Of a stretch of DNA of 64,000 nt, positions 12,494-63,272 are shown piece after piece. Numbering within the stretch: the first letter of the stretch is position 1; each line of letters starts with the position of its first letter. A program made the translations under genes and the position numbers. Source of the DNA: Nitrospirota bacterium (lineage in GTDB: Bacteria; Nitrospirota; Thermodesulfovibrionia; UBA6902). The DNA is taken from NCBI GenBank assembly GCA_016215115.1, contig JACRLN010000024.1, positions 35,337 through 99,336 of the forward strand, written 5' to 3'. Under the pieces are notes generated by a model. That model was not told the origin of the DNA and did no database searches. It was given only the letters and a program-made list of their open reading frames with translations.

Positions 12494-12502
12494 TAAAAAT
12501 GT

Positions 12503-14652: not shown

Positions 14653-14826
14653 GCTTGTTTGAGCTTTGACTTTTTAAAAACTTTCCTTTAAACTTCAATT
14701 GACAAAAATGCGATTTGACGCAGACAAACGCTAAAAACACAAGGATCAAATTTTTATGGATTCTCTGATTTAATCCTTGTGATGACTTATTAAGGTTCTC
14801 ATAATAGTCTGAACATTATTATAAGC

Positions 14827-14905
14827 GTCATTCCCGCATGTCGTTAGCGGGAATCCAGTAATTTCTATCCTCTGGATGCCCGATTAAAGTCCTCGGGCAT
14901 GACAG
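14827..14905. repeat. Family B double-hairpin repeat (GTCATTCCCGC...GCGGGAATCCAG ... GGGCATGACAG)
   Basis: Seen directly. Related copies at 22852-22932, 25689-25806, 29317-29400, 56866-56957, 57420-57512 and 58372-58445. Confidence 0.75.
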
Positions 14906-14977
14906 ACAAAGGCCGACAGTTTGTAAATACTGTTTTGCACAGATTATTGTATATATGCATTCATCAGATATTAAACT

Positions 14978-15989: not shown

Positions 15990-16675
15990 GGAACACCCTG
16001 AATATTGGTAAAGAACCAAATTTCCAGATAATAGTCATAACATCTGCAATCCTGCATCTGCTTCTGATTACCCTTATAGTCGTTCCGCTAAAAACAAGGA
16101 AAGATGAGTATAAAAGCTATTTTGTGAATCTTGTAGGTCCCATTGAATCTGTCAGAGAAACAAAAGGCAATGAAAATAATCACCTATCCCCTTTAGTAAA
16201 AGAGAATGAACTAAGCAAACCTCTGCCAAAAGCGGATATGTCTTTGGAGCCTTCCGACAAAGTATCAAAAGAAATAAGTAGGATGAGCGCCATAAGTGTA
16301 TTATCAAAACTGAAAAAGAAAAAAGAAGCGGGGACGGCTCATGAGATAGAAATTATAAGGCAAAAAATACAGGCAAGCGTTGCAAAGGGTCCCGGTATTC
16401 CAGGTGCTGTACAATCAATGAAATCCGATTCATATTATTCATTGATTACTCGCAAGATTTGGAGTGAATGGATTTATCCTGAAACCGGTTCTGCAGGACT
16501 TGAAGTGATTATAGCTGTAAAGTTAGACCGGGAGGGAAAGGTTATTTCACACGAAATTGAAAAATCTTCCGGCAACAGCCTCTTTGACCGCTCTGCCTTA
16601 AAAGCAATATCGAAAGCCAGCCCACTGCCGCCGCCTCCCGTTGAAATTGAAATAGGCGTGAGGTTTTATCTGTGA
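15986..16675 (+). CDS. tolA: TolA/TonB-family protein (C-terminal TonB-like domain)
   Basis: N-terminal TM anchor, charged linker, and a C-terminal TonB_C-like domain ending in PPPVEIEIGVRF. Position between tolR and tolB. Confidence 0.6.
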   Translation: MRNTLNIGKEPNFQIIVITSAILHLLLITLIVVPLKTRKDEYKSYFVNLVGPIESVRETKGNENNHLSPLVKENELSKPLPKADMSLEPSDKVSKEISRMSAISVLSKLKKKKEAGTAHEIEIIRQKIQASVAKGPGIPGAVQSMKSDSYYSLITRKIWSEWIYPETGSAGLEVIIAVKLDREGKVISHEIEKSSGNSLFDRSALKAISKASPLPPPPVEIEIGVRFYL

Positions 16676-21545: not shown

Positions 21546-21562
21546 ATGTAATCATCTTTATA

Positions 21563-21638
21563 AAATCTCCCCTTACCCCTCTTTGCCAAAGAGGGGAATT
21601 AGTTCCCCCTTTGAAAAAGGGGGAGAAAGGGGGATTTT
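21563..21638. repeat. Family A MITE-like repeat, copy 2
   Basis: AAAATCTCCCC TTA CCCCTCTTTGCCAAAGAGGGG ... CCCCCTTTGAAAAAGGGGG AGA AAGGGGGATTTTTT. Flanked by the HAD stop and the methyltransferase start. Confidence 0.8.
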
Positions 21639-22367
21639 TTGAAACAAGAACAAAACGAAACCCTTGACAGCATAAAAGACATAAAGCTGTTTCAGGCAAA
21701 AAACGGTTATCGCTTCAGCGTAGACGCCCTTTTACTTGAAAATTTTATTTCTGCCAAGCGGCTTGAAAAAGGCATTGAACTTGGTACCGGTTCAGGCATC
21801 ATATCAATCTTACTTGCAAAGAGGTTGAAAAGCACAAAAATTATTGCTGTAGAAATTCAAAGCAATCTCGCTGAACGTGCAATAAGAAATGTGAGTCTGA
21901 ATAGTCTTGATGAGAGGATAGAGATACTTCAAAAAGACATCAAGGATTTGAAAAAGATTTATCCGGCCAATAAATTTGACTTTGTATTTTCAAACCCTCC
22001 TTTTAGAAAAACAACGACCGGTCGCTTAAGTATCTACGAAGAACGTGCTGTCGCAAGACACGAGGTTGAAATAACACTCCCTGATTTAATCAGGACAGCA
22101 TCTTATCTGATTAAACATTCAGGGAAGTTTTTCCTGATCTATCATCCCTTCAGACTTGCAGAATTAATAAGCCTCTTGCAAAAAGCAAAACTTGAACCGA
22201 AAAGGATGAGATTTGTACATTCAAAAATGGGCGAGGAGGCTAAAATGGTTTTGATTGAAGCAGTAAAAGGTTCAGGCACATGGCTTAAAATTGCCCATCC
22301 CTTATTTATCTATGAAAAAGGCAGTGAATATACTTCAGAGTTAAAAAAGATTCTTTCGGTACCCTGA
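21639..22367 (+). CDS. N6-adenine-specific SAM-dependent methyltransferase (TrmN6/YfiC-like small methyltransferase domain)
   Basis: SAM-binding GxGxG (ELGTGSGIISILLA) and the catalytic motif FSNPPF. TTG start abuts the repeat, so the start is uncertain. Confidence 0.6.
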   Translation: MKQEQNETLDSIKDIKLFQAKNGYRFSVDALLLENFISAKRLEKGIELGTGSGIISILLAKRLKSTKIIAVEIQSNLAERAIRNVSLNSLDERIEILQKDIKDLKKIYPANKFDFVFSNPPFRKTTTGRLSIYEERAVARHEVEITLPDLIRTASYLIKHSGKFFLIYHPFRLAELISLLQKAKLEPKRMRFVHSKMGEEAKMVLIEAVKGSGTWLKIAHPLFIYEKGSEYTSELKKILSVP

Positions 22368-44126: not shown

Positions 44127-44705
44127 ATGATACATTACAAAGGAATCAATCATGTAGCCCTGGCAACAAAAGATTTGGATACCACCATCCGTTTCTGGAG
44201 GGATCTGCTCGGGATGAAATTAATCGCGGGAATCGGGAAACGAGGAAATAGACAATATTTTATCGAGCTCTCGGATAATGTGCTGATAGCCTTTTTTGAA
44301 TGGCCGGAGGCTGAACCGGTGCCTGATAAAGACCCCGGAAGGCCAGCAAAAGGACCAATTATATTTGACCATTTATGCATTGAACTGACGGATAAAGAGC
44401 AATTCTGGGCGCTCAAAGACAGATTGACAGCAGCCGGAATATGGGTCACGGAAGCCATTGATAATGGTTTTATTCATTCTATATTTTCCACCGACCCAAA
44501 TGGGATACAGCTTGAGTTCTGCTATAAAATTGATAAATTTGATGTTCGTGATAAATTCAGAATGAAGGACCCCTCGCCTTCGGATGTTACAAAAGAAGGT
44601 CCCGGGCCATTCCCTGACAAATGGCCTGCGGTTAAAAATCCAACCCCGGAAAATGATAGAAAGGTTTATCCGGGTGAGTTAAGGAAGCTTTTTGAGGGGG
44701 AATAA
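44127..44705 (+). CDS. VOC-family (glyoxalase/bleomycin-resistance/dioxygenase fold) protein
   Basis: N-terminal VOC signature (GINHVALATKDLDTTIRFWRDLLGMKL), paired beta-alpha-beta-beta-beta modules. Confidence 0.65.
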   Translation: MIHYKGINHVALATKDLDTTIRFWRDLLGMKLIAGIGKRGNRQYFIELSDNVLIAFFEWPEAEPVPDKDPGRPAKGPIIFDHLCIELTDKEQFWALKDRLTAAGIWVTEAIDNGFIHSIFSTDPNGIQLEFCYKIDKFDVRDKFRMKDPSPSDVTKEGPGPFPDKWPAVKNPTPENDRKVYPGELRKLFEGE

Positions 44706-44726: not shown

Positions 44727-44818
44727 GTAGGGGCGATCCGGTGGATCGCCCCTACGAGAGGACACAAAAAGGGCACGTCGCGACGTGCCCCTACAGGGCG
44801 TATGCCATACGCCCCTAC
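44727..44818. repeat. Family C palindromic (REP-like) repeats, three consecutive palindromes
   Basis: GTAGGGGCGATCCGGTGGATCGCCCCTAC, then the perfect palindrome GGCACGTCGCGACGTGCC, then GGGCGTATGCCATACGCCC. Followed at 44840-44880 by an 8-mer array (CTTTTGCA CTTCTGCT CTTTTGCA CTTTCGCG). Confidence 0.8.
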
Positions 44819-44938
44819 TTTATTGCTTACGCCCTTCCCCGCTTTTGCACTTCTGCTCTTTTGCACTTTCGCGCTCTTGACATTGTTCGGAAATAGCGTA
44901 TGATTTAATATGTAAAGCAAAAAAACAGGAGGTGTGCG

Positions 44939-45358
44939 ATGAAAACTGTAAAACAACTTTTGTTTGCCGCCCTCATAGGGCTTCTCATGGTTTCCGTGGC
45001 AATGGCACAAGAGAAAGCAAGTCAAACTGCCGAGCCGGGCCCAACCACAACCTATCAGGCCAAGTTTCCAATCACCATTCAGGGCGGAGAATATGATATG
45101 AAAACCGTCATAATAGATTTCCCTCAAGGGGTGGGGATGCCTACACATATGCATGGCGGACACGTACTTGTGATAGTACTGAATGGTGAGATGACACTCA
45201 AAGAGAAAGGCACAGAGAGGATAATAAAAGCCGGAGAAAGCTGGACTGAGAATCCCGGCAATCACCACTCAGTCGTCAATGCAGGCTCTACCACTGCCAG
45301 GGTTGTGGTTAACATGCTGCTGCCAAAAGGCGCTGAGGCTACCACGATAATTAAGTAG
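44939..45358 (+). CDS. secreted cupin-domain protein
   Basis: Signal peptide (LLFAALIGLLMVSVAMAQE). A cupin_2-like core (PTHMHGGHVLVIVLNGEM ... NPGNHHS). Confidence 0.6.
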   Translation: MKTVKQLLFAALIGLLMVSVAMAQEKASQTAEPGPTTTYQAKFPITIQGGEYDMKTVIIDFPQGVGMPTHMHGGHVLVIVLNGEMTLKEKGTERIIKAGESWTENPGNHHSVVNAGSTTARVVVNMLLPKGAEATTIIK

Positions 45359-45426
45359 GGGCGATCCGGTGGATTGCCCAAGTGTGGTATCGGGGAAAAA
45401 AGGGCGACCCGCCGGGTCGACCCTAC
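45356..45426. repeat. Family C palindromic repeats (GTAGGGGCGATCCGGTGGATTGCCC ... GGGCGACCCGCCGGGTCGACCCTAC)
   Basis: Seen directly, downstream of the cupin gene. Confidence 0.75.
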
Positions 45427-45489
45427 GAAAACAAAAACCCCGTTAAAAATCTTCATTCTTAACGGGGATAATATTTTAATCCTGATAAA

Positions 45490-46668
45490 TTAATGAAGCT
45501 CAGGCCAGGAAGCGGTCTGCTCTCTTACAGCAATCGCTATCTTGTAAAGAATTGTAAGCACTAAAAACCCTATGGACCATATACCGAGAGTGATCAACGC
45601 CTCTGGCAGTGATGGCCAGTACTCTGTCACCCGCTCGAACATATTCGGAACAAACCCGCCTACGACCAATCCAAAACCCTTGTCGATCCAGAGGGAGATG
45701 AAAACCGCTACACACGCGAACGCAAGCATATTCTCTTTCCTGCGCATGTTAGGATTCACCAGAATGATAAGCGATACAATTGCAAGGATAGTTGACATCC
45801 ACATTAACGGAACCAGTTTTGAGTATCCATCCAGACCGGCATACAGGTAAACGAACGGATGCATGTGACCCGGTATCTGGCTGTAGAACGCAGTGAAGAA
45901 CTCAAGTCCGAGAAGGAACACATTCGCAAACATTGCATAGGTGACTATCTTGCCCAGCGCCTGAATTGCCTCTTTGCCGGGATCAAATTTACTGACCTTC
46001 CTAACTATTAGACACAAGATAATAAGGAGCGCAGGCCCTGATGCAAAGGCTGATCCAAGAAACCGCGCTGCCATAACGGCTGTCAGCCAGAAATGTCTTC
46101 CGGGAAGTCCGGCATATAAGAATGCTGTTACTGTATGAATGCTGACTGCCCATGGAACAGACAGATATATCAGGGGCTTTACCCAATCCGGCGGCGGAAC
46201 TCCTTTACGGTCCGCGGTCAGAGTGGTCCAGCCGACTATTAAGTTAATAAAAAGATAACCGTTTAAGACCATTGCGTCCCAGAAGAGGATCGAGTTAGGG
46301 GTCGGATGCAGTATGACATTCATGACCCTCATAGGCTGGCCCAAATCAACAAAGATAAACAGGATACACATGGTAACGGCTGCTATGGCCAAAAATTCTC
46401 CAAGGATTACAACTTTCCCGAATGTCTTAAAATCATGCAGATAATACGGGATCACCAGCATTACTGCCGAAGCCGCGACCCCGACAAGGAACGTGAACTG
46501 GGAAATATAGAACCCCCAGGAAACATCCCTGCTCATCCCTGTGATACCAAGGCCGTAATCAAACTGACGGAGGTAATTGATAAAACCAACTCCGATAATA
46601 GCAAGCAAAATGAATATCCATGTCCAGTACCTTTTGCTGCCGGTAAGCGCTTTCTCAAGCATGTTCAT
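45490..46668 (-). CDS. dsrP: DsrP, NrfD/PsrC-family integral membrane subunit of the DsrMKJOP complex
   Basis: 392 aa, about 10 TM helices, NrfD-like. Last gene of the dsrMKJOP run. Confidence 0.75.
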   Translation of the reverse strand: MNMLEKALTGSKRYWTWIFILLAIIGVGFINYLRQFDYGLGITGMSRDVSWGFYISQFTFLVGVAASAVMLVIPYYLHDFKTFGKVVILGEFLAIAAVTMCILFIFVDLGQPMRVMNVILHPTPNSILFWDAMVLNGYLFINLIVGWTTLTADRKGVPPPDWVKPLIYLSVPWAVSIHTVTAFLYAGLPGRHFWLTAVMAARFLGSAFASGPALLIILCLIVRKVSKFDPGKEAIQALGKIVTYAMFANVFLLGLEFFTAFYSQIPGHMHPFVYLYAGLDGYSKLVPLMWMSTILAIVSLIILVNPNMRRKENMLAFACVAVFISLWIDKGFGLVVGGFVPNMFERVTEYWPSLPEALITLGIWSIGFLVLTILYKIAIAVREQTASWPELH

Positions 46669-47455
46669 TCCCTCCTATTACGTAGTAAACACTGGGACCA
46701 GACCCGATTTCAGGTTTACGTCTGATGGTATAATTAGCGCTGAGGACCTTCCTTACTTCTGAATTGGAATCTTCGAGATCGCCAAAGACCAGTGCGCCGT
46801 TGGATTTCTCTACACAGGCCGGTTTAAGTCCCCGTGCAAGTCTTTCTGAACAAAAGGTGCATTTCTCTACAACTCCCTTCATCCGGGTCGGGAATTCTTT
46901 ATTTTCTTCTTTTTCTTTGATGAAGGGTCTCGGGTCCCTCCAGTTAAAGCTCCTTGCACCAAACGGGCACGCCGCCATGCAGAAACGGCATCCGATACAG
47001 CGATGGTAATCCATTGCAACAATGCCGTCCGGCCTCTTGAATGTGGCCTTTGTGGGACATACCCTTACACAGGGTGGTTTTGCACAGTGGTTACAGAGCG
47101 CCAGAAAAGGTTTGTGTTTTATGCTCTCAGGTATAAATTCATCGGATACTCCGGGAAAGGTGTTCTCATATTCCTCTTCCCATATCCATTTTACTTCATC
47201 TTTCTTGTTGCCGATATCCGGTACATTATGAATGCTGTGACAGGCATGAATGATTTTCTCATAATCTTCTTTTGTCTTGATTTTACTGACATCAATAACC
47301 ATGGCCCATCTCTTTGCTGTGAGGGCTTCCGGTCCCGGCGAAACAGAGGCTTCAGCATTCGTCGTTAGTAACTCTTCAATAGCAGATGCGCCTGTTAATC
47401 CGAAAAGTGCGGAAGCGCCCGCAATTTTTAAGAATTTTCTCCTGTTTATACTCAT
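46655..47455 (-). CDS. dsrO: DsrO, periplasmic 4x[4Fe-4S] ferredoxin-like subunit with a Tat signal
   Basis: Tat motif (RRKFLKIAGASALFGLTGASA) and multiple CxxCxxC...CP clusters (CNHCAKPPCVRVCP, CIGCRFCMAACP, CTFCSERL). Confidence 0.8.
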   Translation of the reverse strand: MSINRRKFLKIAGASALFGLTGASAIEELLTTNAEASVSPGPEALTAKRWAMVIDVSKIKTKEDYEKIIHACHSIHNVPDIGNKKDEVKWIWEEEYENTFPGVSDEFIPESIKHKPFLALCNHCAKPPCVRVCPTKATFKRPDGIVAMDYHRCIGCRFCMAACPFGARSFNWRDPRPFIKEKEENKEFPTRMKGVVEKCTFCSERLARGLKPACVEKSNGALVFGDLEDSNSEVRKVLSANYTIRRKPEIGSGPSVYYVIGGNEHA

Positions 47456-47850
47456 ATCTCATTCTCCTTTGGTGGGATATGGCACGACCAGCAGTAAGGT
47501 TTTACATTTGCATAGTTGTGGCACTTGTCACAGAATTCCTTTTTGTTGGAATGACAGTGCATGCATGTATTCTGAAGGCTCATTATATATTTTTTTCCGC
47601 CCGTGCTTTCGTATACCAAATTTCCTTCGCGTATAACCAGATCTCTCCAGTTATCCAAAAGCTGCATGTGGTTGGCCCTCATATATTCTTTTGATTCCAC
47701 ACAGCGTTTTTCGACTAACTGTTTAATCACAGGGGTATCGAGTTTTGGTTCAGGCATGGCAGATGTTTTCCCCATGTTATAAAAAATGGGGAATGTAAAC
47801 AGACCGACAAATATGATAAGCCCTGCTATTATCTTTCCTCCGTTATACAT
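47452..47850 (-). CDS. dsrJ: DsrJ, membrane-anchored triheme cytochrome c
   Basis: N-terminal signal/anchor helix and three CxxCH motifs (CMHCH, CDKCH, CWSCH). 132 aa. Confidence 0.8.
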   Translation of the reverse strand: MYNGGKIIAGLIIFVGLFTFPIFYNMGKTSAMPEPKLDTPVIKQLVEKRCVESKEYMRANHMQLLDNWRDLVIREGNLVYESTGGKKYIMSLQNTCMHCHSNKKEFCDKCHNYANVKPYCWSCHIPPKENEI

Positions 47851-49460
47851 TATTCATTGCCCTCCATTCCGGGAAGAGGATCTCCTCGCAGATCTGTGGT
47901 CCTCTCTTTCTCGCCCTTCATAATCATTGCATTTGCTACGAGTTCGTGAACTCCCGTAACTTTTACGCCGGGGACCCAGTAATCCATCGAGGCCGTCAGC
48001 ACCGCCCTGTCGATCGCGCAGATATTTGCGAGCATATTGACGCCATATTTTTCCGCAACGTCTTTTACGGCATTGGCCCTTGGCAATCCCCCTCTCATTC
48101 TGATCTCCATGTTCTCACCTGCGTTCAGTCCTGAACCGCTTCCGCAGCAGAATGTCTTCTCTCTGGTTGTGAGCTCGTCCATTTCGTAGAAATGATTGCA
48201 TACGTTATTGATAATGTAACGGGGTTCTTCAAAGAGTCCCATGCCTCTTGCGGTATTGCAGGAATCATGGAAAGTCACCTTCAGGTTATCATTGCGTTTC
48301 GGGTCCAGTTTCAGTTTCCCGTTTTTAATAAGGTCCGCTGTAAATTCGGCAACGTGCACCATCTTGGTTGATTTTGTATTCTCAAATACCGTGCCGGTTA
48401 TTGGAGACTTCGGCACTTCAAGGAAATCTGCCGGGCCGTTCCATGTATCCATGTACTGGTTGAGGACCCTCCACATATGGCCGCATTCTCCGCCTAATAT
48501 CCACTTTACGCCGAGCCTCCTGGCTTCGGCATATATTTTAGTGTTCAACCGTTTTGCCAGCTCATTGGAAGTAAAGAACCCGAAGTTCCCGCCTTCCGAT
48601 GCGTATGTGCTCCATGTATAATCAAGCCCTAATTCATGGAAGAGCATAAGATATCCCATGCAGGTATAGGTCCCGGGATCCGCGAAAAGATCGCCGGAAG
48701 GTGTTACAAAAAGTATCTCGGCGCCTTTCCTGTTAAATGTCGGTTCAATCTTAATTCCGGTTACGGTTTCGATATCATCCAGCATATAACTCAGATTGCC
48801 CACAATCGTGTGGGGTTCAAGGCCGAGGTGATTGCCCTTCATATAACAATTTGCCGCAGGTCCGGATATCCAGTCAGTGTTTAAACCGAGCAGATTGAGC
48901 AGTTCCCTCCCCATCATAGTAATCTCGGCGGTATCAATCCCGTAAGGGCAAAATACCGAACAGCGGCGGCACTCGGTACACTGGAAGAAATAGTACCACC
49001 ACTCTTTAAGAACTGACAGTGTAAGCGGTCTTGCTCCGGCAATTTTTCCAAGTATCTTGCCCGCTGTTGTAAAATTGCCCCTGTAGACCGAACGGAGGAG
49101 TTCCGCCCTTAGAACCGGCATATTTTTTGGATCTCCGGAGCCGATAAAGAAGTGGCACTTATCTGCACAAGCTCCGCATCTTACACAGATATCCATGAAG
49201 ACTTTGAAAGAACGGTATTTATCAAGCCTCTCCCTCATACCCTGCAGAACTATTTCCTGCCAGTTTTCAGGCAGCTTCCAGTCCTCGTCCTGCACCCTCC
49301 ACTCTCTGGGATTCGGGAAGTGAAGTGTTTCAAGATTTTTCGGCTTTGCCCCATAGCACCAGTTGCCCTCTTTCAGTTCAGCGGGAGTGTCCATCCAGGC
49401 GCTTTGAGGCGGTGTGTAATTTATTTTGCTCAGTTCATCTGGTTTCGGTGTCTTTGCCAT
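47850..49460 (-). CDS. dsrK: DsrK, HdrD-like catalytic Fe-S subunit (CCG domains)
   Basis: N-terminal ferredoxin-like clusters (CVRCGACADKC, CTECRRCSVFCP) and a C-terminal CCG motif (FCCGSGSGLNAG). Confidence 0.85.
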   Translation of the reverse strand: MAKTPKPDELSKINYTPPQSAWMDTPAELKEGNWCYGAKPKNLETLHFPNPREWRVQDEDWKLPENWQEIVLQGMRERLDKYRSFKVFMDICVRCGACADKCHFFIGSGDPKNMPVLRAELLRSVYRGNFTTAGKILGKIAGARPLTLSVLKEWWYYFFQCTECRRCSVFCPYGIDTAEITMMGRELLNLLGLNTDWISGPAANCYMKGNHLGLEPHTIVGNLSYMLDDIETVTGIKIEPTFNRKGAEILFVTPSGDLFADPGTYTCMGYLMLFHELGLDYTWSTYASEGGNFGFFTSNELAKRLNTKIYAEARRLGVKWILGGECGHMWRVLNQYMDTWNGPADFLEVPKSPITGTVFENTKSTKMVHVAEFTADLIKNGKLKLDPKRNDNLKVTFHDSCNTARGMGLFEEPRYIINNVCNHFYEMDELTTREKTFCCGSGSGLNAGENMEIRMRGGLPRANAVKDVAEKYGVNMLANICAIDRAVLTASMDYWVPGVKVTGVHELVANAMIMKGEKERTTDLRGDPLPGMEGNE

Positions 49461-49462
49461 AT

Positions 49463-50455
49463 TTACTCCTTCTCAACTGGTAGTCCAGCGTTTTTCATTT
49501 TATCTCTGAATTCATCTTCATACTCTTGATACGTATGAACCTCAACCGGATAATTCCATGGATTAACATGCCTGACCATACGACTGTTATTGGGAAGATT
49601 CCGTGTCGGGCTGAGCAATACCCCTCCAAGATGCATTATCTTACTGTACGGAATATAAGCAATCAATGTGCTGACGAGTAACAGGTGGATATAAAATATA
49701 ACGCTTATTCCCTCAGGAATCTTGGTATTAAAAGTAACCAGCCCCATTGTCAAAGTTTTTATGCTGACCAAATCCACTCTCAGAAAATACCTCATCAGGA
49801 TGCCGGTAATGGCAATGCTCATAATAAGGAAAAGCGGGAAATAATCAGCGGCAAGAGAAATATAACGGACTTGCGGGACAAAAACCCTTCTCAGAAAAAG
49901 ATAGGTTACAGCTAATAGAAGAACTACCCCGCTTATCAGTACCCCGGGTATTCCTACTTGTAAAAATCCGTCAAGGGCCTCAACGTTCTTCAGAAAGGCA
50001 GGAACCGGTTCAGTAAATAGCCTTATATGTCTTACCAACACAATAAAAAACGACCAGTGGAACGCAAGGCCTCCCAGCCAAAGCCATTTTGTCGATCCGT
50101 AAGAGAGCTTCGGGCCTTCTCTTAATTCAAATTTTGTATTGCTGAAAAGGGATCGGAACAATAAAACTTCAAGGAGCATCCTTCCGACAACTCCAGAGGT
50201 TGTTGAGGGATTGTCAAGTTTGGACTGCTTAATCCATGGCAGGGACTGTTGCTGACCGCAGGTGGTTGGTATACAAAAAGGCACCGGCACGCGTCCCCAT
50301 TTCATGACGCGGGAAATTACTCCAATCAGAAAAACAATAATTGCAATATACGGAACAACTATCCCGAAGAGGAAATGAAGGTTTGCCCCCTTGACTCCTA
50401 TTAAAGGAATTAAAACAAGCCCTATAACAGCTATCAGGGAAAGAATGGCATTCAT
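49463..50455 (-). CDS. dsrM: DsrM, NarI/HdrE-like membrane dihaem cytochrome b
   Basis: 330 aa, 5-6 TM helices, conserved His residues in the helices. Immediately upstream of dsrK. Confidence 0.75.
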   Translation of the reverse strand: MNAILSLIAVIGLVLIPLIGVKGANLHFLFGIVVPYIAIIVFLIGVISRVMKWGRVPVPFCIPTTCGQQQSLPWIKQSKLDNPSTTSGVVGRMLLEVLLFRSLFSNTKFELREGPKLSYGSTKWLWLGGLAFHWSFFIVLVRHIRLFTEPVPAFLKNVEALDGFLQVGIPGVLISGVVLLLAVTYLFLRRVFVPQVRYISLAADYFPLFLIMSIAITGILMRYFLRVDLVSIKTLTMGLVTFNTKIPEGISVIFYIHLLLVSTLIAYIPYSKIMHLGGVLLSPTRNLPNNSRMVRHVNPWNYPVEVHTYQEYEDEFRDKMKNAGLPVEKE

Positions 50456-51114: not shown

Positions 51115-51450
51115 TTATACGCAACCAGTCGGCTTTGGCAGCCCGGCATACCTACATGCCTGTTTTGCAGGACCTGCCGGATACAGTTCATAAAGATATT
51201 TTGTATTCCCCTTTTCCGGACCCATAACTTTTCCAATCTCTTTGGTAAGTATCTTAATCATTGGAGCTATCTGATATTTCGCAAAATAATCTCTGAGGAA
51301 TTTGATAACTTCCCAATGTGAATCAGTCAATTCAAGACCGTCATCCTGTGACATTTTCTTGGCAATGTTTTCATTCCATTCCTGCCAGTCCTGTAAATAT
51401 CCGTCCTCATCTACCTCATAGTTTTTCCCATCAACTTCTATAGTTGCCAT
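51115..51450 (-). CDS. dsrC: DsrC (TusE/DsrC family sulfur relay protein)
   Basis: 111 aa ending ...QACRYAGLPKPTGCV, the diagnostic DsrC C-terminal arm with two Cys 10 residues apart and penultimate Cys-Val. Confidence 0.9.
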   Translation of the reverse strand: MATIEVDGKNYEVDEDGYLQDWQEWNENIAKKMSQDDGLELTDSHWEVIKFLRDYFAKYQIAPMIKILTKEIGKVMGPEKGNTKYLYELYPAGPAKQACRYAGLPKPTGCV

Positions 51451-51591: not shown

Positions 51592-51924
51592 TTACAAATT
51601 TTTCAACCTCACAAAAATCAGCTTGCCTGTCCTTCCTCTTTTGTCCTCTCTTCTGCTTATTGTATTTGTATGAGTATCATAATCGAGCGTCTCCTCTTCA
51701 TAATCCTCCGGCATCAACGTTAATGCCTTATCAATATCGCCCTTGCATAAAAAAGTCAAAGCATCCAGACATATCTCTCCAAGGTTATGCCCTCTGCGGT
51801 CTAATACATACACTGCCCTGCATGTACATATGCCGCCGGTAATCTCAAGTGATTTAATACGAATGTCAACAGGGTTTGCCAGATAATTATCACAAAATGG
51901 ACATTGTAAAGGTTGTCTTCTCAT
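51592..51924 (-). CDS. small cysteine-containing hypothetical protein (CPFC ... CTC ... C...C)
   Basis: 110 aa with an N-terminal zinc-ribbon-like CPFCDN ... GGICTCRAV. Wedged between dsrN and dsrC, overlapping the dsrN stop. Confidence 0.4.
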   Translation of the reverse strand: MRRQPLQCPFCDNYLANPVDIRIKSLEITGGICTCRAVYVLDRRGHNLGEICLDALTFLCKGDIDKALTLMPEDYEEETLDYDTHTNTISRREDKRGRTGKLIFVRLKNL

Positions 51925-53546
51925 GGTTTTATCGAGGTATCCTTAAACTTCCTTGCACATCTCACCAACCCATCCGCCCATTCAGGCGCTCCAATTGCAT
52001 GAAGATGTGTATATGCAGCCAATACATTTTTGTAGCACATTCCGTCTTTGCCATCTACGATACCCTTCCCGCGTCTGACGTTGAATGCAAAATATATTTG
52101 CTCTGAAAATCCCCCTACATCCCCCATTGTAGGGGCGACCCGGCGAGTCGCCCCTACGGTTGAGAGGGGATCTATTTCAAGAACTCGCGAATAATGAAAC
52201 TCATGTCCCTTAAGAACGGTCTTATCGGGAAAGTATTGATTAGCTTTTTCAACCTCAACAATTGTATAACCATGCGCCTGCGGTTTTTTCTCAAGCCCAA
52301 AAGTTATCGGAAGGGCGCCAACCATCGGATATGTCTTGTTGCCTAAAACAAGACTTTTACCAAGATACATCAGCCCGCCGCATTCGGCATATACAGGAAG
52401 CCCGTCCTGAATTGCATCAAACAATGAATTCCTGAAACTTATATTATCAGCCAATGCTATCGCATGTGTTTCAGGGAAACCTCCGCCCATGTAAAGCGCG
52501 TCTATTTCGGGAAGTTTTGTTTCTCTCAGAGGGCTCACTTCGATCAGACTGGCTCCCCTTTTCTCAAGCTCTTCAAAATTCTCCTGGTAGTAAAATTGAA
52601 AAGCAGAATCTCGGATGATACCGATTTTGACTACGGAGCTGGAAGTTGGAGGTTGGGGGTTAGCTTGACCCTTGACACTAATCCCTAATCCCTTATCCCT
52701 TATCCCTGTCTCCAGAGGAGACGCTTCATTGGCAATTTTCAATACTTGATCGATATCAATATATTTCTCTCCTATGTCAGCAACTAATGCCAAAGATTCT
52801 TCAACGTCCTGCCGTTCCTGGAAAGGGGTTAAGCCCATATGCCTTTCAGGAAAAGGGTCTTTCTTTAATCTTGGGATGGCGCCCACCACAGGCAATTTAC
52901 ACCTTTTTTCTATTGCTTTTTTTATCAGGGTCTCCTGCCTGTTTGTCGCAATCTGGTTAAGAACGATACCACCTATTGCAACATCTGCATCCATCTGCTG
53001 GCATCCCAGGACCATTGCGGCAATTGTATTGGTTGCCTTTGTGCAGTCAACAATAATTATTACCGGAGTTTTTAATAATTTGGCCAGTTCAGCGGTGCTA
53101 TAAGTGCCCTCATCATCAACTCCGTCAAACAAGCCCCTATTACCTTCGATGATGGCAATCTGAGTGGAGAGTGGAGAGTTTGGAGTTAGGAGTTCGGATT
53201 CTTTGATTTTGGATTTCAGATTTCGAATTTCGGATCTCAATTCTGTCTTACTTTTGCACTTCTGCACTTTTGCACTTCTGTACTTATCATATGTATGCGA
53301 GATAAAAGACCCAAGCGCCTGCTCCGGCTTCATCATGAAGAGGTCCAGATTGTAACATGGAGTCCCGGCCGTCTTTGCAAGCCAGCCCGCGTCAATATAA
53401 TCAGGCCCTTTCTTAAAAGGTGTAACAAGCAAGCCTCTTTTTCTGAATAAAGAAACAAGACATAAAGAAAGGATAGTCTTTCCGCTCCCACCCCTGAGAC
53501 CGGAAACAACTATCCTTGGTATTGAGAAATTCTGTGATTGGGTCAT
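51921..53546 (-). CDS. dsrN: DsrN, cobyrinic acid a,c-diamide synthase (CbiA/CobB) homolog, putative sirohaem amidase
   Basis: P-loop (VVSGLRGGSGKT), a CobB/CbiA ATPase domain and a C-terminal class-I amidotransferase-like domain (GHEFHYS ... YTHLHAIG). Carries three in-frame repeat-derived segments (52107-52172, 52640-52720, 53160-53290). Confidence 0.8.
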   Translation of the reverse strand: MTQSQNFSIPRIVVSGLRGGSGKTILSLCLVSLFRKRGLLVTPFKKGPDYIDAGWLAKTAGTPCYNLDLFMMKPEQALGSFISHTYDKYRSAKVQKCKSKTELRSEIRNLKSKIKESELLTPNSPLSTQIAIIEGNRGLFDGVDDEGTYSTAELAKLLKTPVIIIVDCTKATNTIAAMVLGCQQMDADVAIGGIVLNQIATNRQETLIKKAIEKRCKLPVVGAIPRLKKDPFPERHMGLTPFQERQDVEESLALVADIGEKYIDIDQVLKIANEASPLETGIRDKGLGISVKGQANPQPPTSSSVVKIGIIRDSAFQFYYQENFEELEKRGASLIEVSPLRETKLPEIDALYMGGGFPETHAIALADNISFRNSLFDAIQDGLPVYAECGGLMYLGKSLVLGNKTYPMVGALPITFGLEKKPQAHGYTIVEVEKANQYFPDKTVLKGHEFHYSRVLEIDPLSTVGATRRVAPTMGDVGGFSEQIYFAFNVRRGKGIVDGKDGMCYKNVLAAYTHLHAIGAPEWADGLVRCARKFKDTSIKP

Positions 53547-53571
53547 TAATTAATTTAACAAAGGCGCACAA

Positions 53572-53670
53572 AAAATTTCCCCCCTTTAAAAAAGGGGGGC
53601 AAGGGGGGATTTTCAAGAAACATATTTTTCTCAAAATCTCCCCTAACCCCTCTTTGTCAAAGAGGGGCAT
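53572..53670. repeat. Family A MITE-like repeat, copy 3 (two tandem sub-units)
   Basis: AAAATTTCCCCCCTTTAAAAAAGGGGGGCAAGGGGGGATTTT ... AAAATCTCCCCTAACCCCTCTTTGTCAAAGAGGGG. Between dsrD and dsrN. Confidence 0.8.
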
Positions 53671-53697
53671 CAAGGCTTAATGACAAATTTTATGTAC

Positions 53698-53946
53698 TTA
53701 CTTAATAAGCCCTTTTTCTCTGAGGTATTCTTCGCTCGGAATTTCAACAGAGCTGGCGCCTCCGCCGTAAGAATACATGAGCCTTCCGACATCAATCATT
53801 CCCCTCAGGGCTTTTTTAACTGCATCAGGAGCCTCTGCTGTCTCCTCAGCGAGGGCCTTGATAACATCTTTTTCTTTGAGTTTTTTCTTACCCTTCATCT
53901 TTTCCATATAAGCGAAGATCTTGTCTTGTAATTCTGTTGTTTCCAT
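53698..53946 (-). CDS. dsrD: DsrD (small winged-helix protein of the reductive dsr operon)
   Basis: 82 aa, Lys-rich (MEKMKGKKKLKEKDVIKALAEE ... VKKALRGMIDVGRL), immediately downstream of dsrB. Confidence 0.8.
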   Translation of the reverse strand: METTELQDKIFAYMEKMKGKKKLKEKDVIKALAEETAEAPDAVKKALRGMIDVGRLMYSYGGGASSVEIPSEEYLREKGLIK

Positions 53947-53966: not shown

Positions 53967-54000
53967 TTTGTAGGGGCGACCCGCCGGGTCGCCCCTACAT
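53967..54000. repeat. Family C perfect palindrome TGTAGGGGCGACCCGCCGGGTCGCCCCTACA
   Basis: Seen directly between dsrB and dsrD. Confidence 0.85.
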
Positions 54001-54012: not shown

Positions 54013-55089
54013 TTATCTTGAATACTTGAATGCTGCCGATGTCCTGAATGTATCTCTTGCGAAAGTGAAATCGTCAATATGCTGGAATGTGAACTCGATT
54101 CCGGTCAGATTGAAGAAGTCTTCCCATCCTATCCTCTCAATCCATTCGCCAACTCTTTCATGCTTCCTTGCATTTTTTGCATATACCTCAAGGATATTCT
54201 TTATTGCAGCAACAACCTTGGGCCATCTCGGCGGTTCATTGTAAAAGAACGGGATTGCCAGTTTCGAGAACTTCGGATTTGTTCTGAGACTGCCGATCTT
54301 TCCGCCCACCACTATCGCCACGCCATCTTCTTCCGGCTTGTGAATGTCAATCGGCGGACATACGGTGAAGCAGTTTCCGCAGTACATGCATTTATCCTCA
54401 TTGATTGTTACTGATTTGTCTTTCGGATTGGGTCTGATTGCCGATGTCGGACACGATGCGACTGTTGTCGGAATCTCACATACTTTAGGCACAAGTTCAT
54501 GATTGATTGTCGGCACTTTTCTGTGCACGGCAACTACAGCTATATCAGAACAGTGAACAGCGCCGCACATGTTAACGCAGCATGCAACTGCAAGCCTTAC
54601 TTTATTGGGCAGTTCTTTTGTTGTGAAATATTCATAGAGATCATCCATTATCGCCTTTACCAATCCTGAGGCATCGGTACAAGCGCTGTGGCAGTGTACC
54701 CATCCCTGTGTATGGACTACGTTACTGACTCTCGGTCCGATACCGCCAACTGAATATTTTTTTGCCTTCAGTTCTGCTACAAGAGGATCTACCTTGCTCT
54801 GGTCGGACACGAGAAATTCCACGTTGTTTCTTGTTGTGAAACGGAGGTATCCGTCACAGTATTTCTCTGACATATCGCAGATTTCACGGATAGTCTCGGT
54901 GCTTAAAATCCTTGGTGATGCAACCCTTACCGTATAAAGCTTATCGCCGCTTTCTGCAACATGCACCATTGTGCCGCCGCTCAAAACCTCATGATATTTC
55001 CATTTGCCGTAGTTTTTCTTTATTACAGGCGGTATAAACTGATCATATTTAGGTGGTCCAATATCTGTTTGTCTTTTTGGTAATGCCAT
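54013..55089 (-). CDS. dsrB: dissimilatory sulfite reductase beta subunit
   Basis: 358 aa. Sirohaem/[4Fe-4S] Cys motifs ([21 protein letters not shown]) and a ferredoxin-like insert ([10 protein letters not shown] ... [12 protein letters not shown]). Confidence 0.9.
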
Positions 55090-55124: not shown

Positions 55125-56309
55125 TTATTTTTTGAAATCGCTTTCTGACCAGAAGAAGAACGGGTCTTTTCTCGGCTCTTTAACCTGCTGTGGCTGAGGC
55201 GGCACACCAATGTGCTCAAGGAAAGGCCTCAAGCCTTTTATTTCAAGAACCTCGCCGATTCTCTCTCTTGGTTTTGCGGTATCATCCCACCATTCAATCA
55301 TGCTGCGGATAAGGGTCTTCAATTCTGTGTATGGCGCCTCCACTTTTATAAATGGAACGATTACCCAGGAAAGCAATGAACCGACAACAATCGGAGCCTT
55401 ACTGCCAACAAGAAGGGTTGCGCCTTTTTCCTTACCTGGTCTTAGCGCCTTTGTCATCTTTGCTATACAATGCATGCACCTGTTGCATTGAACGTCATTA
55501 ATCTTGAGTGTCTTTCCATCGTAAGACATACATTCGGTAGGACACATGTCAATTATCTCTGCATTGATATTCATGCCTGAGTCTGCATACTTTTTCACTT
55601 CTGCCTGATCAATCTGGATATTGCCTTTCCAGGTACCGATGATGGACAGGTCTGCACGGGCAATAGCTGCAACGCAGTCAACTGCGCAGCCGGCTGTCTT
55701 GATTTTAAATTTATAAGGGAATGCCGGCCTGTGAAGTTCATCCTGGAATTCCTGTGTGAGTGCGTATGTAATATCAAGTGTGTCTATACAGGACCATTCG
55801 CAGCGGCCCGGGCCAACGCAGCAACTTGGGGTCCTCATTGCAGAACCTGAACCTCCGAGATCCCATCCGCGTGAAGAATACTCAGCAAAAATGGCTTCGA
55901 GATTTTCAGTCGTGGTCCCGAGAAGAACCAGGTCACCGGTGGAGCCATGCATATTTGTAAGTCCGCTTCCGTATTTATCCCAGATGTCGCAGATCATCTT
56001 TAATGCTTTTGCAGTATAGAAGAAACCGCTTGTCTGGTTAATTCTTACAGTATGAAACTGTGCAATACCGGGGAATTCTTCAGGTAAAGACGAATATCTG
56101 CCGATTACGCCGCCCCCGTAACCGAGAACGCCGACTATTCCGCCGTGTTTCCAGTATCCGCGTTTTGTCTTATACGATTTTTCAAGCTGGCCTAATTCAT
56201 CATCTGCCATTGAGCTTTTTTTCGCAGCCTTTTTTATTTCTGTAACGAAACTCGGCCACGGTCCTTTTTCAAGCTCGTCCAACATTGGTGTTTTATACTT
56301 CCCGCTCAT
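55125..56309 (-). CDS. dsrA: dissimilatory sulfite reductase alpha subunit
   Basis: 394 aa. Sulfite-reductase Cys motifs (PSCCVGPGRCEWSC, TAGCAVDCVAA) and a ferredoxin-like domain (CPTECM ... CNRCMHCIAKM). Confidence 0.9.
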   Translation of the reverse strand: MSGKYKTPMLDELEKGPWPSFVTEIKKAAKKSSMADDELGQLEKSYKTKRGYWKHGGIVGVLGYGGGVIGRYSSLPEEFPGIAQFHTVRINQTSGFFYTAKALKMICDIWDKYGSGLTNMHGSTGDLVLLGTTTENLEAIFAEYSSRGWDLGGSGSAMRTPSCCVGPGRCEWSCIDTLDITYALTQEFQDELHRPAFPYKFKIKTAGCAVDCVAAIARADLSIIGTWKGNIQIDQAEVKKYADSGMNINAEIIDMCPTECMSYDGKTLKINDVQCNRCMHCIAKMTKALRPGKEKGATLLVGSKAPIVVGSLLSWVIVPFIKVEAPYTELKTLIRSMIEWWDDTAKPRERIGEVLEIKGLRPFLEHIGVPPQPQQVKEPRKDPFFFWSESDFKK

Positions 56310-57305: not shown

Positions 57306-57419
57306 CAGATTAGAAGTTTAGCAGATAGAAATTTAAAATTGTAAGGGGGCCTGGCATGCCGTGCCCCTACTGGAAACTGGAAATAAAAACTGTTACAATG
57401 AAACCTCTTGCAAAAATCT

Positions 57420-57512
57420 TTATTTGTCATTCCCGAGGTCTTTATCGGGAATCCAGTATTATTTAGAACAAAAGACCCTCGAATGTCGTAATCGGAGGCG
57501 GGTATGACGGCT
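57420..57512. repeat. Family B double-hairpin repeat copy
   Basis: TGTCATTCCCGAGGTCTTTATCGGGAATCCAG ... CCTCGAATGTCGTAATCGGAGGCGGGTATGAC. Confidence 0.75.
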
Positions 57513-58488: not shown

Positions 58489-60675
58489 ATGGAGCGGGAA
58501 AGCAGGATAAAGGACGAAATTATAGGCATCCTTGCCATTCTTATCGGTCTCGTTGTCATCATAAGCATTATAAGCCACAACCGCTGGGATCAATCACTTT
58601 TTACCTATAACACTTATGAATTAAAAAATCTTCTGGGCCGTTTCGGGGCCAACCTATCAGAAATCCTTCTGCAGGCTGTCGGTCTTTCCTCCTATATAAT
58701 TCCAATAATCTTTCTGATTTTTGGAATAAAGAAGGTTTTTGGCAAAGCAACAAACCAGAAACCTGTTTTATTTATTGTTACAGTCGTAATCCTGATTATT
58801 TCAACATCCTCGCTCTTTACTCTTTTCCTCGGAGGTGATTCCGGCGGCGCTGCAGGAGTATTAATAACAGAGCTGACCAATAAAACTGTTTCATCAATCG
58901 GTTCTCTGCTGCTTTTTGCAACCTTAACGCTTGTTTCTCTGATGTACATTATTCAATTCTCTGTAGCAGATCTGGTAAGAAAGACAAAAAGCAAAATAAT
59001 TTTTGGCACCCAGGCAATCTCTGCCGTAGCGGCTAAAAAGAAAGAGAAAGAACAGCCACAAATAAAAGAAAATAGCGCCACTTCTGAAATACCGGTTCAG
59101 CCGGAGATCGCAGAGCCGGTAGAAATGCCGGAAATACCAAGTATTCAGGAGCCCCTGCCTCTTGCACCCGAGGCAAGAATGAAACCAAAAGAAAAACCTT
59201 TTATGAAACCCTCGGAAAAGGTCGAAGGAGATTATAAACTCCCCGGCGTTGATCTTTTAAAAGACCCTTCACCGTCAAAGTCCAAACCTACAAAAGAAGA
59301 GCTGTTACAACAGTCTGAATTGTTAGAGAAAAAACTCCAGGACTATTCAATTGAAGGAAAAGTCACTTATGTGTCCCCCGGTCCGGTTGTAACAATGTTT
59401 GAATTCGAACCTGCGCCGGGCATTAAGATCAATAAAATCATGTCTCTTTCAGATGACCTTGCAATGGCGATGAAGGCAACGAGCATCCGCATTTCACCAA
59501 TACACGGCAGGTCCACGCTCGGCATCGAAGTGCCAAATCAGGAACGAGAAGATGTTTGTTTGAAAGAGCTTATTGTCTCTGATATATTCAGGAAAAGCCC
59601 TTCAAAATTGACCATCGCTCTCGGGAAAGACATATTCGGAACGCCTGTCATGGCGGACCTGAGCAAGATGCCTCATCTTCTTATTGCCGGAGCAACCGGC
59701 TCCGGTAAAAGCGTTGGAATGAACAGCATCGTGTTAAGCCTTTTATACAGGGCGACGCCAAAAGAAGTTAAGATGCTTATGATTGACCCCAAGATGCTTG
59801 AGCTCTCCGCTTATGCTGAAATTCCGCATCTTCTCATGCCTGTCATTACCTTGCCAAAAGAAGCTTCAAATGCGCTGAAGATGCTGGTATTTGAGATGGA
59901 GCGGCGTTACAGGCTTCTCGCAGAATCAGGGGCCAGGAACATCGAGACATACAATAAGAAATTTGAAATTTCAAATTTCAAATTTCAAATTAAAGAATCA
60001 GATTTTGAATCTCATTCTGCAACTGAACGTGAACCTCTCCCCTATATCGTTATCTTCATCGACGAACTTGCCGACCTCATGTTTGCGTCAGGACACGAAG
60101 TGGAAGACTCTATTGCGCGTCTGGCGCAGATGGCGCGGGCCGCCGGAATACACCTGATCCTGGCAACGCAAAGACCGTCTGTTGATGTAATCACGGGAAT
60201 AATAAAAGCTAACTTTCCATCAAGGATATCTTTTCAGGTCTCATCGAAACTGGACTCCCGGATAATCCTCGATACATACGGTGCAGATCAATTGTTAGGC
60301 AAAGGCGACATGCTCTTTGTCAGTCCGGGCAAAAAAATCAAAAGAATTCACGGCGCATATGTGAGTGAAGAAGAAATGAAACATGTTGTGGATTTTATTA
60401 AGACACAGGGCGGGCCTGATTATACATTGTTCGAGGATATTACCATTGAATCACGGGAAGGGGAGTTATCTGAGGACAAAGATGAACTCTATCTGCAGGC
60501 AAAAGATATTGTGCTGTCCACCGGTCAGGCGTCGATTTCATATATACAGCGCAGGATGAAAATAGGATACAACAGGGCAGCAAGGATTATGGAAATGCTC
60601 GAAGAAGAAGGCGTTGTCGGCCCTCCGGGTGAAGCTGGGAAACCAAGGGAGATATTATGGAAGAGAAAACAATGA
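58489..60675 (+). CDS. ftsK: DNA translocase FtsK/SpoIIIE
   Basis: Four N-terminal TM helices, a Pro/Glu linker, the motor domain (Walker A AGATGSGKSVGMNS, Walker B IVIFIDELADLM) and a C-terminal winged-helix gamma domain. Contains a heptamer-repeat-derived segment at about 59950-60010. Confidence 0.85.
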   Translation: MERESRIKDEIIGILAILIGLVVIISIISHNRWDQSLFTYNTYELKNLLGRFGANLSEILLQAVGLSSYIIPIIFLIFGIKKVFGKATNQKPVLFIVTVVILIISTSSLFTLFLGGDSGGAAGVLITELTNKTVSSIGSLLLFATLTLVSLMYIIQFSVADLVRKTKSKIIFGTQAISAVAAKKKEKEQPQIKENSATSEIPVQPEIAEPVEMPEIPSIQEPLPLAPEARMKPKEKPFMKPSEKVEGDYKLPGVDLLKDPSPSKSKPTKEELLQQSELLEKKLQDYSIEGKVTYVSPGPVVTMFEFEPAPGIKINKIMSLSDDLAMAMKATSIRISPIHGRSTLGIEVPNQEREDVCLKELIVSDIFRKSPSKLTIALGKDIFGTPVMADLSKMPHLLIAGATGSGKSVGMNSIVLSLLYRATPKEVKMLMIDPKMLELSAYAEIPHLLMPVITLPKEASNALKMLVFEMERRYRLLAESGARNIETYNKKFEISNFKFQIKESDFESHSATEREPLPYIVIFIDELADLMFASGHEVEDSIARLAQMARAAGIHLILATQRPSVDVITGIIKANFPSRISFQVSSKLDSRIILDTYGADQLLGKGDMLFVSPGKKIKRIHGAYVSEEEMKHVVDFIKTQGGPDYTLFEDITIESREGELSEDKDELYLQAKDIVLSTGQASISYIQRRMKIGYNRAARIMEMLEEEGVVGPPGEAGKPREILWKRKQ

Positions 60676-62294: not shown

Positions 62295-62445
62295 AAAAAT
62301 CCCCCTGCATCCCCCTTTTTCAAAGGGGGACATTTTTCCCCTCTATTAAGAGGGGTTAGGGGGGTGTTCCCCTCTTTGGCAAAGAGGCTGGGCTCCCGTT
62401 GCAGCGAAGCATCGCAACGGGAAGTGGGGAGATTTTTAAAACTAT
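62295..62445. repeat. Family A MITE-like repeat, copy 4 (largest; extra GC hairpin CCCGTTGCAGCGAAGCATCGCAACGGG)
   Basis: AAAAATCCCCC ... CCCCCTTTTTCAAAGGGGGA ... CCCCTCTATTAAGAGGGG ... CCCCTCTTTGGCAAAGAGG ... GGGGAGATTTTT. Confidence 0.8.
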
Positions 62446-63064: not shown

Positions 63065-63272
63065 AAGGTTTAAGAAACTTTAATAAGCCACGGATACCGA
63101 AAGTATCCGTGGCTTATTTTATCCTATTATAATCAGGGACAAAAATCCGGTCTAAAAACTTGTAATTGAAATGGGTGTGTGATAGATTACCAGGCCGGTT
63201 TTACTATATGAGAATTCTTTGAAGATAAATATTATTTAGAATTGAGCAATCAATATTATTTGAGGAGGTTTT

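Follow-up and report, generated by a model that had tools for sequence, protein, structure and literature searches.

The GTAG REP superfamily has been described from Proteobacteria, Cyanobacteria, Chloroflexi, and the PVC group (Di Nocera et al. 2013, PMC3733652). Its members lie downstream of ORFs, pair as head-to-head dimers, donate TAG stop codons, occur in frame within genes, and flank the gene for their REP-associated tyrosine transposase, or RAYT (PMC3733652). Named relatives are the REP/BIME of Escherichia coli, the REPINs of Pseudomonas, and the SMAG of Stenotrophomonas. In those parts of the REP/REPIN literature that treat the anatomy of the elements (PMC3733652, PMC2817692, PMC5581495), a GTAG head stands beside a GC-rich palindrome of 20–40 bp, and the same arrangement is found in the 64-kb stretch of Nitrospirota DNA analyzed here (hereafter the window). 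The repeats of the window and its relatives resemble the known systems further in occurring both as singlets and as head-to-head doublets, in lying after ORFs, between unidirectional or convergent genes, in the use of the TAG of the tag as a stop codon, in occasional in-frame intragenic copies, and in flanking a RAYT gene in two relatives (L122 and L166).

Several traits set the present family apart. Unlike in the described GTAG REPs, many of its units are perfect palindromes whose tag is paired on both strands (GTAG...CTAC), and one conserved GGGGC/GCCCC frame is common to several stem types; unlike REPs of a single lineage, its 29-mer form occurs in ~15 phyla among the matches listed. We class it as a REP/RAYT system, a kind already known, that is unusual both in architecture and in how widely it is spread. 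Our overall reading, in which we have good confidence, is that the palindromes form a GTAG-tagged REP family with a RAYT partner, and that the copy between dsrB and dsrD most likely acts as an RNA stem-loop.

Repeat family and gene context

The dsr genes of the window and the two genes next to them are as follows:

44127–44705, plus strand: VOC (glyoxalase-family) gene
44939–45358, plus strand: cupin gene
45490–50455, minus strand: dsrMKJOP-like genes (Pfam)
51115–51450, minus strand: dsrC (Pfam)
51921–53546, minus strand: CobB/CobQ-type amidotransferase gene of 541 codons (Pfam), taken as dsrN
53698–53946, minus strand: dsrD, 82 aa, without a Pfam match, assigned by position and conservation
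54013–55089, minus strand: dsrB, one of a Pfam NIR_SIR pair, told from dsrA by order and context
55125–56309, minus strand: dsrA, the other of the NIR_SIR pair, likewise assigned by order and context

Hairpin listing and motif matching revealed nine units of one repeat family in the window:

5908–5935, no strand assigned: REP variant GTAGGGGCAATTCATGAATTGCCACTAC with one mismatch, between a DHH-family gene (end 5849) and truB
44727–44755, no strand assigned: double-tagged REP GTAGGGGCGATCCGGTGGATCGCCCCTAC, a perfect palindrome (arms 13 nt, loop 3 nt), 21 nt past the VOC stop
44771–44794, minus strand: single-tagged REP with another stem, minus-strand GTAG + GGGCACGTCGCGACGTGCCC
44796–44818, minus strand: single-tagged REP with another stem, minus-strand GTAG + GGGCGTATGGCATACGCCC
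45355–45379, plus strand: left unit of a doublet, GTAG + GGGCGATCCGGTGGATTGCCC, one mismatch
45402–45426, minus strand: right unit of the doublet, inverted, plus-strand GGGCGACCCGCCGGGTCGACC-CTAC (minus-strand GTAG + GGGTCGACCCGGCGGGTCGCCC), one mismatch
52129–52157, no strand assigned: REP in frame in dsrN, encoding the peptide VGATRRVAPT, one mismatch
53970–53998, no strand assigned: double-tagged REP GTAGGGGCGACCCGCCGGGTCGCCCCTAC in the dsrB-dsrD spacer
57341–57370, no strand assigned: degenerate REP GTAAGGGGGCCTGGCATGCCGTGCCCCTAC with two stem mismatches and the head GTAA, in the spacer between the divergent bacA and ATPase gene 1

The units share a plan of GGGGC, a variable self-complementary stem, and GCCCC, with a GTAG head on one strand or, as in the perfect 29-mers, on both. 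They are 24–30 nt long, form stem-loops with arms of 8–15 bp, and are the most GC-rich hairpins of the window (68–80% for the listed palindromes, compared to 42% for the window as a whole). REPs are marked by a GT(A/G)G head directly beside the palindrome, and eight of the nine units show GTAG on at least one strand; in the ninth, one side reads GTAA and the opposite strand GTAG. Their number is in excess of chance, the 14-mer GTAGGGGCGANCCG with at most two mismatches matching eight times in the window where 0.26 matches are expected, a count of eight or more being reached in none of 100 shuffles. The copy number by which REPs are recognized is typically >100 per genome, to be set beside nine units in 64 kb here.

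All but one of the nine units are extragenic, and six of these eight lie within ~115 nt after a stop codon. For copies of the 29-mer in other genomes, the covering ORF has a median length of 150 aa, compared to 341 aa at random positions; the copies are thus depleted from long ORFs. An earlier reading of the window, made from the sequence only, had placed the copies at gene 3′ ends, as we also find: the VOC stop at 44705 is followed by a repeat from 44727, and the dsrB stop (54013–54015) by a repeat with its edge at 53998. On the strand of these dsr genes, the REP at 53970–53998 lies 14 nt past the dsrB stop and 23 nt ahead of the dsrD ATG. The cupin gene goes one step further, its TAG stop codon (45356–45358) being the TAG of the GTAG head in the left unit of the doublet.

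The copies named in the sequence-only reading all exist (44727–44755, 45355–45426, 52129–52157, and 53969–53999), although its description of them as perfect palindromes of 29–31 bp fits only the first and the last. The last is a 15+1+15 palindrome, TGTAGGGGCGACCCG-C-CGGGTCGCCCCTACA, around the core 53970–53998; the copy in dsrN has one mismatch, and the supposed pair of perfect palindromes at 45356–45426 is instead two half-tagged inverted units with one mismatch each. Two palindromes set aside there as unrelated (44771–44794 and 44796–44818) share the frame GGGC...GCCC-CTAC and so belong to the same superfamily; with 44727–44755 they are clustered in the interval from the VOC gene to the cupin promoter. 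Two members were missing from that list, 5908–5935, whose stem type is also found downstream of dsrP in a relative (L123), and the degenerate 57341–57370. The term REP-like, used there, suits the family in its GTAG head, GC-rich hairpin, inverted doublets, 3′-end sites, donated TAG stop, and in-frame copy.

Three other classes of element were considered and rejected. Integron attC sites are 55–140 bp long, with extrahelical bases and the R″/R′ core sites RYYYAAC ... GTTRRRY; the present units end in GTAGGGG/CCCCTAC, are 29 nt long, and pair perfectly. A CRISPR array does not fit copies dispersed over 52 kb with irregular spacing and differing stems, and HIP1 was ruled out on anatomy.

The window holds further repeats. 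A second family occurs at 347–425, 21562–21640, 53575–53670, and 62297–62345 in composite units of ~80–90 nt, with two hairpins, TCCCCCTTT-N3-AAAGGGGGA and CCCCTCTTTG-N-CAAAGAGGGG, bounded by AAAATCCCCC...GGGGGATTTT. One of its units fills the dsrD-dsrN spacer, creating a spurious 86-aa ORF (53413–53673), and the family appears in frame in the DsrN of relatives as PPLKKGDVGGF. A third, small palindromic family, GTCATTCCCG...CGGGAATCC, is represented at 57424–57453 and by degenerate copies at 5881–5907 and 5946–5968, between which lies the REP at 5908. Two long perfect hairpins are unrelated to the REP family, one at 15837–15883 (20-bp arms, 7-nt loop) and one at 63082–63118 (16-bp arms, 5-nt loop, then a T-run), and an AT-rich tandem (AAATTTC)n with overlapping palindromes occupies 59953–59991.

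Insertion polymorphism and a RAYT gene in relatives

We compared the orthologous dsr loci of six relatives (L122–L127), to which L166 was added through its RAYT protein. In the five measured, dsrB is 85–92% identical to that of the window in nucleotides; DsrD, also measured in five, is 94–99% identical in protein.

The copy inside dsrN, already recognized as in frame by the sequence-only reading, proves to be a genuine insertion that keeps the frame. Its peptide, VGATRRVAPT, occupies about residues 464–473 of the 541-aa DsrN, in a hypervariable site after HEFHYSRVLEI at which most homologs in an alignment of 26 DsrN have no insert. At the DNA level this site is empty in L123, L122 shares the insertion of the window, and L124–L126 have a different repeat there, in a remnant of which, as the older insertion, the REP of the window is nested. 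The GTAG head contains a stop codon in one frame only, so that only the VGA...APT or RG...RPY frames can survive inside genes. Three to four hypervariable loops are seen in the DsrN of the window's clade, and the repeat-encoded peptides that fill them differ from one relative to the next; among the 120 best matches the length of DsrN ranges from 456 to 561 aa, most having no insert at the site studied. The Rickettsia palindromic elements (RPE) likewise place in-frame repeats in surface loops of conserved proteins, as in the three to four loops of DsrN; RPE-1 are longer palindromic insertions (PMC3733652), and no RAYT link is claimed for RPE.

A second polymorphic site follows the dsrP terminator, CCCCGTTAAGAATGAAAATTTTTAACGGGGTTTTT, which is common to the window (45438–45467) and all six relatives. 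L127 represents the empty state, with a convergent VOC stop directly after the terminator. L122 has at this point an intact 198-aa RAYT-type gene (11583–12179), with a REP 48 nt upstream, a REP across its TAG stop, and a doublet downstream; the gene itself contains another REP doublet in frame (VGATRRVA...GATHRVAPT). The layout of RAYT and REPs is the same in L166. Two relatives retain fragments, L124 an HUH fragment of the RAYT followed by a doublet, and L125 a doublet followed by the C-terminal half of the RAYT. The window has the doublet alone (45355–45426), joined to the terminator through the same CGTAGGG junction as in L125 and with the cupin gene on its other side. By this junction, and by its match to the doublet that relatives have within their RAYT gene, the doublet of the window is the last relic of a decayed RAYT gene.

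Inverted doublets of this REPIN/BIME type thus occur in the window (45355–45426) and in L122, L124, L125, and L166. The overall REP load varies among the relatives in step with this history of the RAYT gene, from one hairpin each in ~19 kb of L126 and L127 to six to eight in L122, L125, and L166. A search for a RAYT elsewhere in the genome had been proposed with the sequence-only reading, and it is at the syntenic site of the close relatives L122 and L166 that an intact RAYT flanked by the repeats came to light. No RAYT gene was found in the 64-kb window, where tblastn with three RAYTs gave only palindrome-encoded peptides. A close RAYT, P0123, was discarded as a candidate gene of the window's own sample, coming as it does from another sample (SRR29366205).

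The cupin gene of the window and a promoter-like site upstream of it (44877–44904) are bracketed by REPs, three upstream and the doublet downstream. The whole block 44727–45426 is missing from L127, in which the stop of the VOC gene directly adjoins the dsrP terminator, and it looks like a REP-bounded insertion or rearrangement. Elsewhere around the locus, L125 has DarT and a Macro-domain gene adjoining the dsr genes (1243–4351), and in L126 dsrN is immediately followed by a gene for a C39 peptidase / RHS-YD repeat protein (11008–17223); such defense or toxin genes point to a variable neighborhood around the conserved operon. A conserved 110-aa ORF without a Pfam match (51592–51924, minus strand) lies in the dsrN-dsrC interval of the window, overlapping the dsrN stop, and is found in every relative that keeps the dsrN-dsrC neighborhood (all but L126).

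The RAYT-like protein and its embedded repeat

By profile comparison and structure modeling, the linked protein is RAYT-like, with an HUH motif and a conserved Tyr in an IS200-like fold. It matches the NCBIfam model NF047646 (“REP-associated tyrosine transposase”) at E = 8e-17, scoring 61.6 and 63.1 bits where the cut-off is 80, and Pfam PF01797 (Y1_Tnp) with 22.2 and 20.1 bits against a cut-off of 23. These scores lie under the curated cut-offs, and we therefore treat the proteins as relatives of the RAYT equivalog and not as members. A search of the PDB with the family profile gave a sole match, TnpA-REP (4er8, E = 4e-5), in which the HUH and WQRNYxExxIR motifs were aligned. In the family alignment, P-N-H-x-H and the Tyr in R-x-Y-I-x-N-N-P are invariant. 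The core of the AlphaFold model has pLDDT >90, and its top Foldseek match is again 4er8_A, followed by the TnpA of IS200, IS608, and ISDra2; many homologs are named “REP element-mobilizing transposase RayT” by JGI. The E. coli TnpA-REP (RayT, PDB 4ER8) shares the HUH motif, W-Q-x-x-[FY]-x-[DE]-H-x-I-R, and the Tyr in Y-I-x-x-N-P. Identity to it is nonetheless only ~14%, and the proteins described here differ in having a REP-encoded, low-confidence loop of 20–70 residues between the HUH strand and the next helix. By homology to this E. coli protein, the transposition chemistry of the present REPs would be that of TnpA-REP.

When genomes representing species were scanned for the 29-mer, with a few degenerate positions, it was found in at least 119 stretches; by their record titles, the hosts among the matches listed are MAGs of ~15 phylum-level groups and one isolate, Thauera aromatica LG356 (L117). 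At seven of the listed loci, all from other phyla, the 29-mer stands in frame in a small RAYT-like gene, right after MPNHxHGII, and mostly not beside the gene. We scored the loop, from the HUH motif to the GSIGAIxGQFK helix, with loose regular expressions, and among the 120 best homologs of the L122 RAYT in a word-indexed search, peptides encoded by GTAGGGGC/GCCCCTAC were present in 109 of the 110 that could be scored. A word-indexed search favors shared words, and it was therefore repeated by profile, without a word index, over 1.84 billion cluster representatives; the family so defined has 25,389 members at E ≤ 1e-10. By the same loose expressions, both tag peptides were found in 92 of 130 scorable proteins among the 150 best profile matches, with many different stems, and most of the others had degraded versions of them. 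The embedded repeats are often paired, and the two halves, as read from the peptides, back-translate to reverse complements (e.g. VGAIPTGRP...GRPVGIAPT). In the AlphaFold model the embedded loop has pLDDT of 43–57.

Described RAYTs, so far as the relevant parts of that literature extend, have REPs that flank the gene or overlap its end; here, unlike those, the repeat is in frame inside the ORF and is often a doublet. Keyword searches of the searchable portions of PMC2817692, PMC5581495, and PMC6006769 did not find a REP inside a RAYT gene, and other literature may hold one. Full-text searches for GGGTCGCCCCTAC and VGATRRVAPT returned no paper, and those for GTAGGGGC matched primer lists. The trait does not extend to all relatives: a homolog on a Leptolinea plasmid, 37% identical, has a short loop without a REP, and the embedded repeat is therefore a trait of a subclade. 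A related RAYT is also found in an isolate, Geoalkalibacter subterraneus (P0227). We had compared the nucleotide identity of the REP (98%) with that of the flanking RAYT codons (63%), a contrast rejected as evidence since it is circular, the loci having been selected by the pattern.

We tentatively suggest, at somewhat less than even confidence, that a large RAYT clade keeps its own REP in frame in a disordered loop, and that transposase and repeat move together between hosts. A repeat that travels inside the gene would move with its transposase, which would explain the presence of the 29-mer in ~15 phyla. The embedded copy could be a master that seeds the genomic REPs, or a cis site for sensing or regulating its own gene. 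The search for a vehicle found the RAYT clade in only 6 of 72,556 plasmid records, all at <60% identity (27–37% for those listed), and in one phage record; with the clade so rare on plasmids and phages, no vehicle was identified.

In other genomes, the flanks of the 29-mer extend the palindrome by at least 3 bp in 15% of the 126 copies listed (1.6% expected) and by at least 5 bp in 8%. Some of the extended 29-mers are parts of longer genome-specific repeats (e.g. in the Spirochaetia MAG CAJXGR01); others suggest insertion at the center of existing hairpins.

The hairpin between dsrB and dsrD

The RNA of the dsrB-dsrD spacer folds at −30.1 kcal/mol (z = −5.7), and in all seven close genomes a hairpin lies at the same place, past the dsrB stop and ahead of the dsrD ribosome-binding site. 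A metagenome scan with DsrD added 38 loci, allowing comparison of 34 distinct related spacers, every one of which has a strong GC hairpin 10–25 nt past the dsrB stop. The stems of the more distant loci (DsrD 72–87% identical) bear no relation to REPs and resemble a terminator in the U-rich tail behind them; those of the window's clade are GTAG-type palindromes with an A-run after them. Within this clade 96% of cells are paired, compared to only 41–49% in slid controls, and both sides have changed in 8 of 13 pairs, a result reached by none of 500 shuffles. The tag covaries as well, from GTAG/CTAC to GCAG/CTGC, GTAT/ATAC, or GTGG/CCAT, and the persistence of pairing in spite of such departures from GTAG speaks for selection acting on the stem.

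With hairpins in 34 of 34 distinct spacers and compensatory changes in 8 of 13 pairs, a structural RNA role for the dsrB-dsrD hairpin is plausible, and we infer that the position of an old intercistronic hairpin is now filled by a REP that would serve as an RNA stem-loop. Rho-independent terminators are similar in placing a GC-rich stem-loop just past the stop, and the outgroup dsrB-dsrD spacers share their U-rich tail. We nevertheless rejected this class for 53970–53998: AAAAAA follows it on the sense strand, with no T-run on either strand, and the terminator scan did not call it. An A-run in place of a U-run means that the hairpin is not a canonical terminator. The same scan flags only two of the REP sites (44769–44792 and 45405–45419), both on the minus strand, and Rfam at its gathering threshold finds two tRNAs in the window and nothing at the palindromes.

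Another parallel is the REP between malE and malF of E. coli, reported to set an expression ratio as an intra-operon mRNA stabilizer. There, as here, a stable stem-loop lies between two cistrons, after the more highly expressed upstream gene, although for the dsrB-dsrD copy the function is read from conservation and covariation only.

The main competing explanation for this copy is that it is purely selfish, with no RNA role, such elements favoring insertion into hairpins or their replacement, for example of an ancestral dsrAB terminator. The unrelated GC hairpin with U-rich tail at the same spot in outgroup spacers would supply just such a target, the centering of 15% of listed 29-mers in longer palindromes is in line with such a preference, and the dsrN and 5908 copies are themselves nested in other palindromic repeats. 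The stem moreover changes faster than synonymous sites: by hand count it can differ at ~12 of 29 positions between genomes with 83% identity at the third codon positions of dsrB, whereas other pairs of genomes have identical hairpins. Such change looks like replacement of one REP variant by another, not slow drift, and the covariation could stem from this replacement instead of from selection on the RNA. Against a purely selfish copy, a strong hairpin has been kept in every one of the distinct spacers, and pairing has outlasted the GTAG tag, which favors selection for the stem over recognition by the RAYT. We judge the selfish reading rather unlikely, and retain that of a REP most likely acting as an RNA stem-loop.

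Other explanations for the family

The palindromes might instead be DNA binding sites of a host protein, whether a dimeric regulator or, as for the BIMEs of E. coli, gyrase or IHF, with their positions reflecting chromosome organization. Perfect dyad symmetry would suit such a role, and the part of PMC2817692 that deals with BIME/REP mentions their binding by host proteins. The units are located after genes and in coding sequence, however, not at promoters, and stems that vary freely with pairing kept are better explained by a folded single strand than by a duplex bound in sequence-specific fashion; we regard this explanation as improbable.

Still less credible, in our estimate, is that ordinary terminators or attenuators arose in place at gene ends, with no mobile family behind them. 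Several units do lie at 3′ ends, the hairpin after dsrB is ancestral, and the two units flagged as terminator-like have a T-run after them on the minus strand. Local origin does not account for the eight occurrences of the 14-mer, for the 29-mer in at least 119 stretches of other genomes, or for in-frame copies inside dsrN and RAYT genes; and the real dsrP terminator (45438–45467) is an unrelated hairpin with a U-tail.

Metagenome assembly artefacts, which might come to mind since nearly all of the listed 29-mer genomes are MAGs, can be dismissed, with the same insertion found in independent assemblies (the window, L121 from Logan, L122, L125, and L129), the repeats in frame in conserved genes, and isolates that have the 29-mer (T. 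aromatica LG356) or a related RAYT (G. subterraneus).

Proposed history and significance

The following history would account for the locus as a GTAG-tagged REP family with a RAYT partner. The palindromes would be short non-autonomous hairpin elements served by the RAYT, an HUH single-tyrosine transposase related to the TnpA of IS200. In this Nitrospirota lineage a RAYT gene would have sat just downstream of the dsrP terminator, where it remains intact in two relatives and is reduced to fragments in two more and to its internal doublet in the window. Copies would have landed after genes, once donating a TAG stop codon, and one in frame in a tolerant surface loop of dsrN; the dsrB-dsrD copy would have taken the position of an older intercistronic hairpin. 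As a stem-loop of about −30 kcal/mol in the dsrABD transcript, it would protect the dsrAB part upstream of it from 3′-to-5′ decay and might also reduce read-through. Either effect would set the ratio of DsrAB to DsrD, as with the malE-malF REP.

Read as REPs, these elements account for the odd palindromes of the window, for the 10-residue insert of DsrN, and for the cupin stop codon, and the dsrB-dsrD hairpin becomes a testable control point for the ratio between the sulfite reductase DsrAB and its small partner DsrD. Palindromes of the form GTAGGGGC...GCCCCTAC and their peptides (VGATRRVAPT, RGDPPGRPY, and the like) are scattered in environmental genomes, where they inflate sets of “hypothetical proteins”; their tie to one RAYT clade gives annotators a rule. 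Where the REPIN-RAYT literature touches on inheritance, it describes such pairs as vertically inherited and lineage-specific, with which a transposase and repeat that move together would, if real, contrast. Should the embedded-REP architecture prove real and functional, it would offer a simple route by which a domesticated transposase and its repeats could spread horizontally together.
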